A stretch of DNA of 64,000 bases from Candidatus Dormiibacterota bacterium (GTDB lineage: Bacteria > Chloroflexota > Dormibacteria > Aeolococcales > Aeolococcaceae), in assembly GCA_963800175.1 (NCBI GenBank), contig CAWCZS010000002.1:960328-1024327 (forward strand), written 5' to 3'. Positions 20,517 to 31,414 of this stretch are shown piece by piece (the first letter of the stretch is position 1; the number at the start of each line of letters is the position of its first letter). The notes beneath the pieces were generated by a model. The model worked only from the letters and a program-made list of their open reading frames with translations. It did no database searches and had not been told where the DNA came from. Made by a program: the position numbers and the translations under genes.

Positions 20517-22440
20517 GTGGATGCTGTAACCACCGCACGTCCGCCGATGTCGACACCGCCGACACTGGCTCGCCGGCTCAGCGAGTGGGGACTGCCACTC
20601 GGAGTCGTCGGCGCCGTGATCGGGTTCATCATCGGCTTCGCTGTTGGCACGCACGCCATCCCGTACTCCTTTGGCGAGGACAACTCGCTCGGCTCCGACC
20701 CGGGAATCCTCCTCGGCTACGCGCTGAGCGTCGTCGGATTCCTCGCAGGCATGGGGTTCCTCAACTATCCGATCGGCCGTCTGCTGGGTGCGAAGCGCCC
20801 GACGGAGGAGGACAACGCGTACCTCCACGGTGAGGGTGGTGGGCTCGGTCGGTACTTCCGGATGACCACCGACCACAAGGTCATCGGGCTGCAGTACCTG
20901 GTGATGATCCTCACGTTCCTGTTCGTCGGCGGGCTCGGCGCGATGTTCATCCGTACCGAGCTGCTGACCCCATCGCCGACTGTCGCGAACGCGCAGTCAT
21001 ATCTGACGCTCGTCGGGTTGCACAGCACGCTGATGATCTTCATGGCGTCCGCGGCGATCATCGGGCCGTTCGGCAACTACTTCGTGCCGATCATGATCGG
21101 CACGCGCAACATGGCATTCCCACGCGTTGAGGCGCTTGACGTTCTGGCTCCTTCCACCTGCCGGATTGATCCTGCTCTCCACGGTGTTCCTGGGCGGTTT
21201 CACAACCGGGTGGACCGGCTACGCGCCGCTCGCCGATCAGAACGTGCTGGGCATGGACTCCTACCTCATCGCGTTCGCGCTCATCGGCATCTCGATCGGC
21301 CTGTCAGGGCTCAACATGATCGCGACGATCCTCACCAAGCGTGCTCCTGGGATGCCGCTCAGCCGGATGCCGATCTTCGTGTGGTCGGTGCTGGTCACGT
21401 CATTCCTCGGCGCGCTCGCGGCCCCCGCATTGATCGCCGCGGTTCTCATGGAAGTGTTCGACCGCTCGTATCAGACGACGTTCTTCGTCCCCGCCGGCGG
21501 TGGGTCGCCGTATCTCTGGGAGAACCTGTTCTGGTTCTTCGGCCACCCGGAGGTGTACATCTTCGTCGTCCCGGCTTTCGGGCTCGTCATGGAGATGCTG
21601 CCGGTCTTCACGCGACGGCCGCTCTGGGGCTATCGCGTCGGTGTCGGCGGCATGGTCGCAATCGGACTGCTCAGCTTTGTCGTGTGGCAGCACCACCTGT
21701 TCGTGAGCGGTCTCGCGCCGTCACTGCGACCGTTCTACATGTTCTCCACCGAGATGATCTCGGTGCCGACCGGCATCATCTACCTGGTGGCACTGGGGAC
21801 GATGTGGCGCGCGCGCACGCGTTTCACGGTGCCGATGCTGTTCATCTTCGGATTCTTCTTCAACTTCCTGATCGGCGGGTTCACCGGCGTGTTCCTGTCG
21901 GACGTGCCGAGTGACTTCACGCTGCACGCAAGCTACTTCGTGCAGGCGCATTTCCACTACACGATCATGGGAGGGGAGGTCTTCGCACTGATGGCGGCGA
22001 TCGTCTATTACCTCCCGAAGATGACCGGCCGCACCATGGACATCAAACTGCTGCGCTTCCAGTTCTGGGCCGTCTTCATCACGTTCAACGGAACGTTCAT
22101 CTCGCTCATCGCGGTCGGCATTCTCGGCATGCCGCGACGCGTCATCAGTTACGCGGCGTACCTGCAACCGCTGAACATCAGTGCAACGATCTTCGCGTAT
22201 GGGCTCGGGCTGTCGATGACACTCTTCCTCGGCATCCTGCTGTGGGAAGTGTTCATCAAGCAGCGGGTCGCGGCGAGCAACCCGTGGGATTCGCTGGGCG
22301 TCGAATGGCAGGTGCCGACACCGGTGCCGACATTCAACTTCGACCGTGTGCCGGTGTCCTGGTCGTTGCCGTATGACTACGACACAGGCAAGCCCGCGGC
22401 GGACTTCGGGCCGGCCGTGCCCGCCTTGAGTGGAGCGTGA
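20517..22440 (+). CDS. ctaD: Cytochrome c oxidase subunit I with ~65-aa N-terminal extension; frameshift near 21130
   Basis: TTDHKVIGLQYLV, GNYFVPIMIG, WFFGHPEVYIF and HHLFV..HFHYT heme/CuB ligand motifs. The expected FPRLNALSFWLLPP is broken between ORFs 20517.. and 21127..22440. Confidence 0.9.
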
Positions 22441-24418: not shown

Positions 24419-25373
24419 ATGCAGACCAGCGCAGACATCGTCATCGGCGGAGCGGAGGGGACCGGCGTGCCCACCGTCGCTGTTGACGTCGCCGGTCGCC
24501 GATCCACACAACTCCGCGCGAGCGCTCGCGATTACGTGAGCCTGACCAAGCCTCGCATCATCGTGCTCCTTCTCATCACGGAGATCGCGACGATGGTCAT
24601 CGCCGCGCGGGGGATTCCGTCGCCCGGCGTTGCTGCTGTGGGCCGCGCTCGGCGGGGCGCTCGCATCCGGCGGATCAGGCGCGATCAACTGCTGGTACGA
24701 CCGCGACATCGACCGCGTCATGGCGCGCACGTGCACCCGTCCGCTCCCGTCGGGACGCATTCTGCCGTGGCAGGCGCTCACGTTCGGCGTGTCGTTGATC
24801 GTCGCATCCGTGCTCGTGTTCAGCCTCGCCGTGAATCTGCTCTCGGCCGCGCTGGCACTCGGCGGTGGCTTGTTCTACGTGTTCATCTACACGATGCTGC
24901 TCAAGCGAAGGACGCCGCTGAACATCGTCATCGGCGGTGCCGCAGGCGCGTTCCCGCCACTGGTGGGTTGGGCTGCGGTGCAGGGCAACGTCGGCTGGCC
25001 GGCGTTCGTACTCTTCGCGGTGGTGTTCCTCTGGACGCCGCCACACTTCTGGTCACTCGCACTGCTGCTCCGTCGCGACTACCGCAATGCCAGCGTGCCG
25101 ATGTTGCCGGGCATCATCGGAACGGCCAGGACGCACCGGCGAATCCTTCTCTACCTCGTGGTGCTGATCGCGGCGAGCCTGCTTCCTGGACTCGTTCTCG
25201 GCATCGGGTACACGATCGGCGCGGCAGTTCTGGGCGCGTTCTACATGGGGCTTGCCCTCTGGGCTCGCGCCGAGGGTTCATCACGCGCGGTGGCGCTGCT
25301 GTTCCACTACTCGCTCGCGTATCTCGCGCTCATCTTCGTGGTGGGCGCTGTGGCGGCGGTCGTCCTCGGCTAA
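24419..25373 (+). CDS. ctaB: Protoheme IX farnesyltransferase (heme O synthase); frameshift near 24620
   Basis: LTKPRIIVLLLITEIATM in frame 2, then INCWYDRDIDRVMARTCTRPLPSG and LWTPPHFWSLALL in ORF 24630..25373. Confidence 0.85.
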
Positions 25374-25440
25374 GCGCTCGGGCTCAACTGGCGAGGATCG
25401 TTCAGGTCGAGTCGCCGCCCTAAGCATTGACACGCTGAAG

Positions 25441-28266
25441 GTGATCGCATACGTTGCACGTCCATCTCGATACGGGAAGGAACACGCCATCCTTACTCAG
25501 CACAAGCGCAAGATTCTCCTCTCCACGCTCGTCGCCGTATTCCTTGCAGGAGTCACGGCAGTGCCGACGACAATTGGTGCGGGCGCCGCTCCTGCGCCAG
25601 CGAACGCCGGCGTCGCCGCCCGCATTGCACGTGCTGCCGCGATCGCGCACGCAGACCTGGGCCGCACTGCGAAGCCCGTCTGCGGCCCGGTGCAACCTGG
25701 ATTTGCGCGGTGCCTCGAGTTGGTCGACAAGGCTCCGCTGGGATTCACGCCCCTCACAAGTCCCGACGGCTACGGTCCGGCCGACCTGCAGAGCGCATAC
25801 GCCCTTCCATCGTCGACCAACGGCACAGGCAGGACCATCGCCATCGTGGATGCGTACAACGATCCGGACGCGGCATCGGATCTGGCCACGTATCGATCCA
25901 CGTACGGGCTACCGCCATGCACCGCAGGGAGCGGATGTTTTCGCCAGGTCAACCAGTCGGGTGGGACCTCGCTTCCCGCGGACAACGTGCAGTGGGCGAG
26001 CGAAATCTCGCTCGACCTCGACATGGTCTCGGCCACCTGCCCGAACTGCCATATCCTGCTCGTCGAGGCGTCGATTCCCTACAGCACGGATCTGGGGACC
26101 GCTGAAGACGAAGCCGTCGCTCTGGGCGCGACGGAGATCTCGAACAGCTACGGCGGGCCTGAGGGGACGTTCGACCAGAGCACCGACCCCTACTACGACC
26201 ATCCGGGCATCGCCATCACCGCCGGAAGCGGTGACGACGGCTACGGGGTCAATTACCCGGCGGCTTCGCCCTACGTCACCGCCGTCGGCGGAACGAACCT
26301 CCAGATGACGACCACCGGCCGGGATTGGGCCGAAACAGCCTGGGACGGAGCGGGAAGTGGTTGCAGCGCGTACGAGAGCCGGCCCACGTGGCAGTCGAAC
26401 AATTCGAACATCGTCGCGGTCTGCGGCCACAGAGCTGTCGCCGACGTCTCCGCCGTTGCGGATCCGGACACGCCGGTGGCGGTCTACGACACCTACGGTT
26501 CCGGCGGTTGGGGTCTCGCCGGCGGCACCAGCGCGTCGACCCCGATCATCGCCGGCGTCTTCGCGCTGACGTCGAACGCGTCGGCATTCGGCACGGGGTA
26601 TCTGTACAGCCACACGGCCGGTCTCAACGACGTGACGTCCGGTTCCAACGGCAGCTGCGGTGGCAGTGCGCTCTGCACGGCCACGATCGGATGGGATGGG
26701 CCCACGGGCCTCGGAACTCCCAACGGCATCAGCGCTTTCGGCACGGGCGGTGACCCGATTATCAGCGCAGTCGTCCCTGCGACAGGGCCGGTTGCAGGTG
26801 GTGAGACGGTGACGGTGCTCGGCTCCGGATTTTCGGCACCAATGACCGCAACAATCGGTGGCACGTCAGTGACTCCGACCGCGATCACGGCCGACTCCTT
26901 TCAATTCGTGACTCCCGCGGAGAGCGCGGGCTATGTCCAGATCGAAGCGAGGACCGCGATTGGCCCGAGCCTGCCCGCGGCGCAGTCCGGGTACGTTTAC
27001 ACGGCGCTCAGCAACTACACGGCCCTCCCCGCACCGTTCCGCATTCTCGACACGCGGGCGTTGACATGCATCCAATGCGCGAGCGGCGCTCTGGGCGCGG
27101 GCGCCACGCGAACGGTTCCGATTACGGGGTACACCGATCCCAGGACGCATGAGACTGTCCCTGCAGGCGCGACGGCGGTTGTCATCAACGTGACCGCTGT
27201 GGCGGGCACTGCCGCGAGCCTGCTCACCGTCTATCCGGCCGGCACGTATCAGCCGACCGCGTCGAATCTCAACTTCGCCGCCGGAAAGGCCATTCCCAAC
27301 CTCGTGACCGCCACGCTCGGCGAGAGTGGCGCGATCACCATCTACAACGCTGACGGCATGGTGAACGTGCTCGCCGACGTCGAGGGATACTTCGCGCCCG
27401 AGGCGTCGAGTGATGCCACCGGCGAGTTCCACGCCATCGCCCCGGTTCGCGTCTGCGACACGCGATCGACCTCGACGACGCCCGCCTGCAGAGCCCACGG
27501 CGCGCTTGTCGGCACGACCCCGCTCATCGTCAACGTGACCACGGGCGCCGGAATCCCGAGCAACGGTAATGCCGCTGCCGCGGTGCTCAACATCACCGGG
27601 GTCGCCGGTAACGCCCTGACCTTCCTGAGCGTGTTTCCGACGACATCGACCGGAACCTGTGCGTACGGTGGCAGCACGGCCCCAGCCTTCTCGATGCTCA
27701 ACCTTACCGCCGGCGTCACGCAGGCGAATCGGGTGATGGTGGGACTCGGACCGTCGGCGCCGGGCGGCAATGACACGTCGGTGTGCGTGTACAACGCGGC
27801 CGGGACGATCAACGTGGTTCTGGATGCCAATGGCTGGTTTGGCGGATCCAGCGCCGGAGCCGGCGACCAGTACGAGGCGATCAGCCCGAGCCGCATCTGC
27901 GACACCCGCACGGCGTCGGGCTATCCGTGCGCCGGCGAGACGCTCGGCCCGAACAGCCACGACGTCGTAGCTGTGGCGGGTGTCGGCGGCGTTCCGGCCG
28001 CTGCTTCGGCGAATCCGCCGCTCGCCATCATCGCCAACCTCACCGCGATCGCACCCACTGCGGGCACATACCTGTCGATCTACCCGGCGAACCTCTCGAC
28101 ACTCCCGGTGGTGTCGGACATCAACGACAACCCCGGAGAGGTGCTTGCAAACCTCGTGGTGGTGGAGCTCGATCCAAACGCGGGAGCGGACGACGGCGAC
28201 GTCAACCTTTACAACGCGGCCGGCATCGTGAACGCCGTGGTCGACGTCGAGGGCTGGTTCCAGTAG
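25441..28266 (+). CDS. Secreted S8/S53-type serine peptidase with IPT/TIG domain and three tandem ~125-aa repeats of an uncharacterized domain (start codon uncertain)
   Basis: Signal-like KRKILLSTLVAVFLAGVTA. Peptidase motifs TIAIVDAYNDPD, AGSGDDGY and GGTSASTPIIAGVFAL. IPT/TIG PIISAVVPATGPVAGGETVTVLGSGF. Three repeats each start R[IV][LC]DTR and end D[VA][EN]G[YW]F. Confidence 0.7.
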   Translation: MIAYVARPSRYGKEHAILTQHKRKILLSTLVAVFLAGVTAVPTTIGAGAAPAPANAGVAARIARAAAIAHADLGRTAKPVCGPVQPGFARCLELVDKAPLGFTPLTSPDGYGPADLQSAYALPSSTNGTGRTIAIVDAYNDPDAASDLATYRSTYGLPPCTAGSGCFRQVNQSGGTSLPADNVQWASEISLDLDMVSATCPNCHILLVEASIPYSTDLGTAEDEAVALGATEISNSYGGPEGTFDQSTDPYYDHPGIAITAGSGDDGYGVNYPAASPYVTAVGGTNLQMTTTGRDWAETAWDGAGSGCSAYESRPTWQSNNSNIVAVCGHRAVADVSAVADPDTPVAVYDTYGSGGWGLAGGTSASTPIIAGVFALTSNASAFGTGYLYSHTAGLNDVTSGSNGSCGGSALCTATIGWDGPTGLGTPNGISAFGTGGDPIISAVVPATGPVAGGETVTVLGSGFSAPMTATIGGTSVTPTAITADSFQFVTPAESAGYVQIEARTAIGPSLPAAQSGYVYTALSNYTALPAPFRILDTRALTCIQCASGALGAGATRTVPITGYTDPRTHETVPAGATAVVINVTAVAGTAASLLTVYPAGTYQPTASNLNFAAGKAIPNLVTATLGESGAITIYNADGMVNVLADVEGYFAPEASSDATGEFHAIAPVRVCDTRSTSTTPACRAHGALVGTTPLIVNVTTGAGIPSNGNAAAAVLNITGVAGNALTFLSVFPTTSTGTCAYGGSTAPAFSMLNLTAGVTQANRVMVGLGPSAPGGNDTSVCVYNAAGTINVVLDANGWFGGSSAGAGDQYEAISPSRICDTRTASGYPCAGETLGPNSHDVVAVAGVGGVPAAASANPPLAIIANLTAIAPTAGTYLSIYPANLSTLPVVSDINDNPGEVLANLVVVELDPNAGADDGDVNLYNAAGIVNAVVDVEGWFQ

Positions 28267-29968: not shown

Positions 29969-31414
29969 GTGGCGGTTGCCGTTCCGACTGCGGGTGAGTC
30001 GGTTCCGACCCAACCCGTCGGCGAGATCCTCCCGACCACGAGCAAACCGGCAGGAGGCGGTGGGTTCCGCAGTCACCTCGGATCCCTGCTCTTCCTGCTC
30101 CCGGGTGCGCTGTGGCTTTTGCTGATCGTCGTCTACCCGCTGATCGCGACAGTCATCCGCAGCTTCTTCGATGGCAGCGGTCAGAACTTCATCGGCCTTG
30201 GCAACTACCAGGCCGTCTTCTCGACGACAGACATCATCGTCTCGCTCAAGAACAATGTCGTCTGGGTGGTGCTGTTCCCATTCCTGGTGACCTTCTTCGG
30301 GCTGGTGTTTGCGGTGCTCACCGAGCGCATCCGGTGGTCGACGGCCTTCAAAACCATCGTGTTCATGCCACTCGTGTTCAGCGCGACCGCCGCCGGCCTG
30401 ACCTGGGCGTCGATCTTCTTCATCGATCCGCATACCGGCCTGGTCAATGCCGCAATTCAGGGCGTGAGCAATGCCGTCAACCCTCCCGGGCTCTACCCGA
30501 TCGATCCGACCACGGGCCAAACGGTGTCAAGTCTTGCCGCGACCGACGTGCAATCAGGCACCGCCGGCACGCTGGAAAGCAAGGCGACGGTCAGCGCTGG
30601 GAGCACGCTCAATCTCGGTCTGATCGGCATCAGCCCTGTCACGTTGCAGACCAACGGAGCGACGACCGCTGTCGTCCCTACGGCGGCAGCGGGAGCCATC
30701 ACGGGGCTTGTGTGGCGCGACTTCTCGCCGACGCACCCAACCGTGCGCGGCCAGGTGTTCCCGGACGAGGACGGCATTCCCGGCCTGAAGGTCTCACTGC
30801 TCACCTCGAGTGGCGCCGTCAGCGCGACCACCATCACGGCGAACAACGGCACCTTCAAGTTCGACGGTGTCGGGTCCGGTAACTTCCGCGTGCAGATCAC
30901 GGCCAACAATTTTCAGGCCGGCTTCAACGGAATTTTCTTCCTCGGCACGCAATCGCTCACGCCAACGAGCTCGCTGAACCCGACACTGCAGGCCATCTTC
31001 AGCCTGCCGATCGTCGATATCGCGATGATCATCGCTTACCTGTGGATCTGGGCCGGATTCGCAATGGTCGTGATCGGTGCGGGACTTGCGGCGCTCAACC
31101 GCGAGGTGCTCGAGGCGGCGCAGATCGACGGTGCCAGTGAGTGGCAGACGTTGCGTCGCGTCACGGTGCCGATGCTGCGGCCGGTGCTCGTCGTCGTCTT
31201 CGTGACCATGCTCATCAACGTGCTCAAGATCTTCGACATCATCCTGAACATGCCTGCTCCGTCGTCGCAGGGCGGGGCCGCAACACTCGCGGTAGACATC
31301 TACAACGACTTCTCGACACCGACGGGCCAGGGGCTCGCCGCGGCTCTCGCGGTGGTGCTCTTCATCCTCGTCATCCCCGCCATGCTGTTCAACCTCAAGA
31401 GGATTCGCGGATGA
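29969..31414 (+). CDS. Sugar ABC permease (MalF/UgpA-like) with ~200-aa periplasmic insertion
   Basis: EAA-type permease core (AAQIDGASEWQTLRRVTVPMLRP). Residues ~150-350 form a hydrophilic insert containing GQVFPDEDGIPGLKVSLLTSSGAVS...NGTFKFDGVGSGNFRVQI, a Cna-B/carboxypeptidase-regulatory-like beta-sandwich signature. Confidence 0.75.
   Translation: MAVAVPTAGESVPTQPVGEILPTTSKPAGGGGFRSHLGSLLFLLPGALWLLLIVVYPLIATVIRSFFDGSGQNFIGLGNYQAVFSTTDIIVSLKNNVVWVVLFPFLVTFFGLVFAVLTERIRWSTAFKTIVFMPLVFSATAAGLTWASIFFIDPHTGLVNAAIQGVSNAVNPPGLYPIDPTTGQTVSSLAATDVQSGTAGTLESKATVSAGSTLNLGLIGISPVTLQTNGATTAVVPTAAAGAITGLVWRDFSPTHPTVRGQVFPDEDGIPGLKVSLLTSSGAVSATTITANNGTFKFDGVGSGNFRVQITANNFQAGFNGIFFLGTQSLTPTSSLNPTLQAIFSLPIVDIAMIIAYLWIWAGFAMVVIGAGLAALNREVLEAAQIDGASEWQTLRRVTVPMLRPVLVVVFVTMLINVLKIFDIILNMPAPSSQGGAATLAVDIYNDFSTPTGQGLAAALAVVLFILVIPAMLFNLKRIRG

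Follow-up and report, generated by a model that had tools for sequence, protein, structure and literature searches.

A sedolisin-type peptidase gene from a Dormibacterota genome ends in three copies of an unnamed, predicted jelly-roll module that may anchor proteins to the cell envelope

The gene described here lies on the forward strand of a 64,000-nucleotide stretch of DNA from a Candidatus Dormiibacterota bacterium (contig CAWCZS010000002.1), the whole of which is referred to as the window, and encodes a peptidase that ends in three tandem repeats of a module without a family name. Its frame is open from 25252 to the stop codon (Table 1), and translation from the GTG at 25441, which serves for all amino acid (aa) numbering below, gives 941 aa. 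From the N-terminus, the product comprises a putative signal peptide, a short segment, an S53 catalytic domain, one immunoglobulin-like (Ig-like) domain of the IPT/TIG type and the three repeats. The protease class is already familiar, as is the design of an enzyme joined to a beta-sandwich accessory module. What is new here is the module, which represents a very large family, unnamed in the libraries searched, with a conserved motif set, a three-copy unit and no close solved structure.

The three tandem repeats that a first-pass annotation of this DNA had described are all present, with RILDTR, RVCDTR and RICDTR as start motifs at aa 534, 670 and 818, DVEGYF, DANGWF and DVEGWF as end motifs at aa 646, 795 and 935, and internal N-x-T sites in each copy. 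A family profile built from 61 sequences recognises every one of them at an E value of 2.1e-32 or lower, and no other match to this profile was found in the six-frame translation of the window. The region they fill is longer than the 380 aa first given for it, at about 418 aa (aa 524-941). The repeats measure some 125-140 aa each and share 36-39% pairwise identity with 32 invariant columns, a repeat pattern far beyond chance. Relative to the family these copies are unusually divergent from each other (38-40% identity in the family comparison); repeat 2 is the most divergent and carries a Cys-containing insertion. The GWFQ terminus of repeat 3 also ends 43 of 120 homologous fragments.

Searches of Pfam-A 2025, NCBIfam June 2026 and the PDB sequences gave no match for the window copies at E values up to 10, and neither the 61-sequence profile nor consensus-like relatives matched a named family in these collections. 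The repeat thus stays outside the named families, as had been stated at first pass, and no well-described domain family was found for it in Pfam-A, NCBIfam or the PDB sequences. A match of Peptidase_A4 to repeat 1 (E 0.023, below the cut-off) was set aside as noise. Pfam DUF7363 scores just under its cut-off on a repeat of P0246 (aa 145-213; 27.5 bits against 28.3) and matches weakly on a repeat of P0123 (aa 1199-1264; E 9e-4), which hints at a distant link between the repeat family and an uncharacterised Pfam DUF; the window's own repeats gave no match to it even at E values up to 10. DUF7363 is likewise without an assigned function, so that no annotation is gained from it. Topic and motif-string searches of the open-access literature turned up nothing relevant to the repeat, and repeat-bearing proteins are named in their sources, where a name is given, as 'hypothetical protein' or after the partner domain.

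Table 1. Features of the peptidase gene and its product (window positions; aa numbered from the GTG at 25441)
Feature	Position	Strand	Basis
Promoter-like element: TTGACA (25427-25432), 17-nt spacer, TACGTT (25450-25455)	25427..25455	+	read from sequence
Ribosome-binding-site-like (RBS-like) GGGAAGGAA (25474-25482), then candidate ATC start (25489-25491)	25474..25491	+	comparison with the related loci L001 and L002
Putative signal peptide (M)LTQHKRKILLSTLVAVFLAGVTAVPTTIGAGAAPAPANA, about aa 17-56	25489..25608	+	read from sequence
Short N-terminal segment, ~50 aa, in place of a pro-kumamolisin activation domain	25609..25758	+	no PF09286 match; 1t1e alignment
S53 (sedolisin/kumamolisin) catalytic domain, aa 107-431	25759..26733	+	phmmer against PDB sequences
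Catalytic residues: E188 (26002-26004), D192 (26014-26016), oxyanion D265 (26233-26235), S364 (26530-26532)		+	kumamolisin-As alignment
IPT/TIG Ig-like domain, aa 439 to ~522	26755..27006	+	Pfam PF01833
Repeat 1, aa 524-652, RILDTR to DVEGYF	27010..27396	+	family profile, E 4.8e-44
Repeat 2, aa 661-801, RVCDTR to DANGWF	27421..27843	+	family profile, E 2.1e-32
Repeat 3, aa 808-941, RICDTR to DVEGWFQ (protein C-terminus)	27862..28263	+	family profile, E 3.6e-43
Stop codon	28264..28266	+	open reading frame (ORF) list

When the family profile was searched against 1.84 billion cluster representatives (50% identity), 39,603 proteins were found at E values up to 1e-3, and 14,380 of these reach E values up to 1e-30. 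Judged from the subset of matches that carry source names, the family occurs in the phyla Actinomycetota and Dormibacterota, with carriers among metagenome-assembled genomes (MAGs) of Acidimicrobiales, Mycobacteriales and Dormibacterota; in the cultured carriers Streptomyces, Curtobacterium and Arthrobacter, module genes are found on plasmids. Among the 150 best representatives, a list ranked by summed score that cannot contain proteins with one or two copies, 135 have three copies, two have four, five have five, seven have six and one has nine, and the eight proteins with six or nine copies have them arranged in sets of three. In 115 of these 150 proteins the module forms the C-terminus, and in 31 it comes directly after the signal peptide. 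The 86 module-bearing S53 relatives have three copies in 72 cases, two in 8 and one in 6. Three copies are the strongly preferred number, not an obligatory one, and triples without any other domain also exist (P0251 and P0264 are examples). Mean identity is 65% between copies of one protein and about 51% between copies of different proteins, and the family comparison revealed no position-specific signal among repeats 1, 2 and 3. The copies thus behave as equivalent subunits that are repeatedly homogenised or re-triplicated.

In the 61-sequence domain alignment the R, D and R of RxxDTR, the N of NxT, the S and N of SxLN and the D and G of DxxGW are invariant, and the T of both DTR and NxT, the N of NL and several Pro and Gly are nearly so. 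In a set of 72 proteins, most of the invariant residues are unchanged in all three copies as well. The N-x-T sites were considered as glycosylation sequons and rejected as such, since both Asn and Thr are invariant within a beta-strand motif, L-N-V-T, which points to a structural or functional role. Wherever a Cys occurs in RxCDTR, a second Cys follows within 25 residues (105 of 105 copies; the motif Cys is never alone), and although the Fisher p for this pairing is inflated by kinship of the sequences, the all-or-none pattern stands. Paired Cys of this kind indicate a disulfide and an extracytoplasmic location, and would imply that the bond staples the loop after strand 1. The window protein has such pairs at 27448-27500 in repeat 2 and 27892-27935 in repeat 3, with a C-x-x-C pair downstream of RILDTR in repeat 1 instead.

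A beta-sandwich, as proposed at first pass, is predicted for the repeat with high confidence: based on the 61-sequence alignment, AlphaFold2 models repeat 1 as a jelly-roll of eight beta-strands (pLDDT 95.3, pTM 0.88). The triple (aa 520-941, 422 aa; 72-sequence alignment) is modelled with a pLDDT of 91.9 and a pTM of 0.91, a value that for three domains suggests a fixed mutual arrangement not expected of independent beads on a string, although it may partly reflect the tendency of AlphaFold to pack repeated domains. When the single repeat was compared with the PDB by Foldseek there was no match at E values up to 1e-3 (best E at least 4e-3). The best neighbours are all jelly-rolls (TM 0.31-0.47, identity 10-18%) and fall into carbohydrate-binding modules (CBMs; CBM6, CBM35, CBM36 and a porphyran-binding CBM), TNF/C1q-like trimers and viral coat proteins. 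The nearest solved neighbours, though distant, are the CBMs, in line with the carbohydrate- or surface-binding sandwich that had been suggested. The triple as a whole showed no resemblance to solved or viral predicted structures (TM at most 0.25), its low-scoring neighbours being unspecific multi-jelly-roll proteins, among them the STIV triple jelly-roll and capsid polyproteins of the picornavirus-like type.

The company kept by the module was surveyed in a Pfam scan of 122 module-bearing proteins. Partners include Ig-like domains (fn3 in 14, TIG in 7, and He_PIG, PKD and Big_13), beta-propellers (FG-GAP, NHL, SGL, SBBP, DUF5122, PQQ and RCC1), proteases (Peptidase_S8 in 6, and Peptidase_M10), peptidoglycan hydrolases (Amidase_2 in 2), RHS and beta-helix domains, and three glycoside hydrolases (GH5, GH43 and GHL15). 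An LPXTG-like or hydrophobic tail is missing in 34 of the 35 proteins in which the module is not C-terminal, and one family member joins the module to a 'choice-of-anchor Q' domain. Such diverse partners, for the most part other than glycoside hydrolases, are characteristic of a general anchor for surface display and not of a substrate-specific CBM.

Drawing on this architecture, on the predicted structure and on analogy with known triple-repeat anchors, we tentatively read the triple as a pseudo-trimeric, multivalent glycan-binding module that most likely serves as a non-covalent anchor in the cell envelope, a reading we consider plausible and well short of settled. The three jelly-rolls would pack into one rigid pseudo-trimeric body in which each domain supplies one polar site, made up of R-x-x-D-T-R, N-x-T, S-x-L-N, N-L and D-x-x-G-W/Y. 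The three sites would jointly bind a repetitive glycan polymer in a multivalent manner, and this polymer would most likely belong to the producer's own envelope, so that the module could hold the protease and other passengers non-covalently on the surface. In the exported S53 peptidase the single TIG domain would act as a spacer before the triple. The binding or targeting role proposed for the repeats at first pass would likewise fit the family architecture. A serious alternative, rather unlikely in our estimate, is that the module is a substrate-targeting lectin or CBM which binds exogenous polysaccharide (plant, fungal or microbial wall debris in soil) and thereby gathers the protease at insoluble food particles instead of at the producer's own surface. 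The closest solved folds do include CBM6, CBM35, CBM36 and the porphyran-binding CBM, S53 paralogues have a ricin-B lectin, CBM4_9 or B-lectin domain at the corresponding place, and a few family members are GH5, GH43, GH18 or GHL15 enzymes. However, glycoside hydrolases account for only about 3 of the 122 partners, most of which are propellers, Ig-like domains, proteases and amidases; the structural likeness lies at the level of the fold only (TM at most 0.47, E above 1e-3), and classical CBMs are not organised in constant sets of three. The anchor is favoured over the CBM on account of the surface-type partners that are not carbohydrate-active enzymes, the position at either terminus, the absence of other anchors and the peptidoglycan amidases among the partners.

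Readings of the triple as a scaffold, a surface-layer (S-layer) block or a prodomain substitute are less likely. Polar R, D, R, N, S, N and D that are invariant in every copy of the sampled family members, despite some 35-50% identity, would be unusual in a pure spacer, and Ig-like spacers (TIG, fn3) are already found in the same proteins; we therefore regard it as unlikely that the module is free of any ligand and acts as a rigid pedestal, or in oligomerisation or stabilisation, to protect or space its extracellular passengers, even though the prediction is of a compact and rigid triple, the module occurs at either end of very different proteins and triples such as P0251 and P0264 stand alone. 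Abundance of the family, the same stand-alone proteins and an architecture like that of trimeric jelly-roll capsid and exosporium proteins (BclA, viral coats) would suit a self-assembling surface-layer block whose pseudo-trimers tile into a lattice bearing passengers, but comparisons with capsid and triple jelly-roll proteins gave TM values no higher than 0.25 and there is no evidence of lattice contacts, which leaves this quite improbable. An S_layer_C identity, taken from a single Pfam match in P0121, was dropped as it did not recur in six other multi-repeat members. Very improbable, finally, is that the module stands in for the absent S53 prodomain and serves the peptidase specifically as intramolecular chaperone or inhibitor: the window protein is indeed without a pro-kumamolisin activation domain, but the module sits on dozens of unrelated, mostly non-protease partners, and one family member has Pro-kuma_activ and the module together. 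The envelope-anchor reading also has several points to contend with. Complete-looking S53 relatives with one or two copies exist, as do proteins with four or five; the ranking behind the list of 150 leaves low-copy proteins out of that count; and the packing tendency of AlphaFold bears on the rigidity of the triple. A tblastn search with P0134 (fn3 plus the triple module) against a collection of 50,697 phage records gave no match, so that cell-wall binding gains no support of the endolysin type. The neighbours of the peptidase gene, which are ctaG, a redoxin gene and ctaB (cytochrome oxidase assembly) and a divergent sugar ABC transporter, give no functional link, and we know of no characterisation of the Dormibacterota cell envelope.

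The peptidase had been introduced as S8/S53-like, and it is the S53 part of that description that holds. A phmmer comparison of the core with the PDB sequences gave kumamolisin-As (E 3.1e-20), sedolisin (E 6e-10) and human TPP1 (E 5e-8), and E78, D82, D164 and S278 of kumamolisin-As align residue by residue with E188, D192, D265 and S364 of the window protein. The serine motif GGTSASTPIIAGV that had been pointed out is present at aa 361-373, with S364 as the residue aligned to S278. Judged by sequence, the enzyme is an S53 sedolisin-type peptidase with a complete Glu/Asp/Asp/Ser set and not an S8 peptidase; Peptidase_S8 is matched weakly by the isolated core in Pfam (25.5 bits), and Pfam applied to the whole protein returns IPT/TIG as its sole match. 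This latter domain, named at first pass as well, is borne out by PF01833 at aa 439-501 with a score above the gathering threshold (E 3.1e-10; 40.4 bits against a cut-off of 20.9), and full-length homologues have the same precomputed IPT/TIG match. Pro-kuma_activ (PF09286), usually of about 190 aa, gave no match in the window protein even at E values up to 10; the alignment to pro-kumamolisin 1t1e begins at 1t1e residue 185-189, and the short segment in the place of the prodomain contains two Cys. The absent prodomain does not undo membership of S53, of which it is typical without being catalytic, but it raises the question of how such an enzyme folds and stays inactive.

S53 cores with other C-terminal modules (He_PIG, ricin-B lectin, CBM4_9, DUF642 and B-lectin) are found in Actinoallomurus, Streptomyces and other bacteria, as exemplified by P0312, P0374 and P0378. 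This variety suggests that the targeting end of the protease family is freely swapped.

The start of the gene calls for revision. Its closest relatives are two loci in MAGs of Candidatus Dormibacteraeota/Dormibacteria, here L001 and L002, with proteins 86-87% identical to that of the window. The GTG at 25441, from which the first-pass annotation had begun the protein, overlaps the promoter-like element, a stretch conserved at the DNA level in L001 and L002, and a 1-nt deletion within GGGAAGGAA in L001 breaks the frame of this GTG upstream of that point; it is probably the wrong start. Protein conservation among the three genomes begins only at 'EH(A/V)IL(T/S)QHKR', and from this motif to the hydrophobic core of the signal peptide all three lack an ATG, GTG or TTG in frame. 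In the public record of the identical protein (P0405, 901 aa) the gene is called from GTG 25561, a codon that is GCA in both L001 and L002; such a start would cost the protein its signal peptide. The putative signal peptide, with a basic n-region, a hydrophobic core and an Ala-rich c-region, is kept in both relatives. The peptidase gene thus seems to be without a canonical start codon, and the ATC in Table 1 is likely the best candidate for a non-canonical one, being conserved, placed 6 nt downstream of the RBS-like run and without an in-frame canonical start nearby. The TTGACA and TACGTT hexamers, kept in L001 and L002 together with their spacing of 17 nt, look like a putative promoter on weak evidence; a consensus promoter scan does not report the element, and its second hexamer fits at 3 of 6 positions only. 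The gene upstream, for a UbiA-type heme O synthase, ends at 25373.

Two further observations concern other genes of the window. Ahead of its conserved core (BPD_transp_1, aa 350-473), the sugar ABC-transporter permease at 29969-31414 (+) carries an insertion made up of a beta-sandwich (aa 258-317) of the CarboxypepD_reg/SdrD_B-like type and a long segment rich in Thr, Ser and Gly; for a permease, such an extracytoplasmic insertion is unusual. The gene model of cytochrome oxidase subunit I at 20517-22440 (+) looks split or frameshifted: the match of the ORF at 20517-21914 (+) to the COX1 profile (aa 123-207) is confined to the first ~84 profile positions, and a long ORF at 21127-22440 overlaps this ORF in a different frame.

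Secreted proteins that bear the module number in the tens of thousands in soil Actinomycetota and the uncultured phylum Dormibacterota. Among them are proteases, peptidoglycan amidases, glycosidases and large proteins of the propeller or Ig-repeat kind, and all would be better annotated once the module is defined as a domain. Should it prove to be a wall anchor, it would show a route of surface display in these bacteria, point to the ligand polymer and offer a portable display tag for Streptomyces biotechnology. The sedolisin of the window would then be cell-associated and not freely diffusing.

In comparison with characterised systems, the enzyme shares with kumamolisin and sedolisin (MEROPS family S53, clan SB) the Glu-Asp-Ser triad, the oxyanion Asp and the GGTSxxxP serine motif, but it is without the activation domain and has a C-terminal TIG domain and three predicted jelly-rolls that are absent from the characterised enzymes. 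The repeat resembles CBM6, CBM35 and CBM36 (best neighbours 8xmz, 1ux7, 2vzp and 1uy0), which are of similar size and are likewise accessory domains of secreted enzymes, at the level of the fold and with no Pfam or PDB profile similarity; these modules form no fixed triplets and are mostly found on glycoside hydrolases. The TNF/C1q-like trimers, among them the C-terminal domains of BclA and of Chlamydia Pgp3 as well as OX40L, are jelly-rolls of about 130 aa in threefold assemblies and rank among the top 50 structural neighbours of the repeat (TM 0.38-0.45). This likeness, too, is one of fold only, and these proteins are homotrimers of separate chains, whereas the window module has three copies in one chain.

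The closest parallel in organisation is offered by SLH and CWB2, two triple-repeat anchors of Firmicutes. Three tandem SLH copies bind a pyruvylated secondary cell-wall polymer, and three CWB2 copies form a triangular trimer in Clostridioides difficile. As in the family of the window module, the copies are equivalent, have a conserved Arg-containing motif each and stand in tandem threes at one end, N- or C-terminal, of a wide range of unrelated secreted proteins, and for the window module packing as a pseudo-trimer is proposed. Neither PF00395 (SLH) nor PF04122 (CWB2) matched the window protein or the scanned family members. It is possible, if doubtful, that the triple is the main, as yet unrecognised, non-covalent envelope anchor of Actinomycetota and Dormibacterota, and as such a third solution structurally unrelated to the other two. 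A speculative extension of this would have a single-chain pseudo-trimer, with three Arg/Asp-lined sites for a specific wall glycopolymer, display thousands of proteins. The likeness is one of analogy only, SLH being helical, CWB2 alpha/beta and the module of Actinomycetota and Dormibacterota, by prediction, an all-beta jelly-roll.

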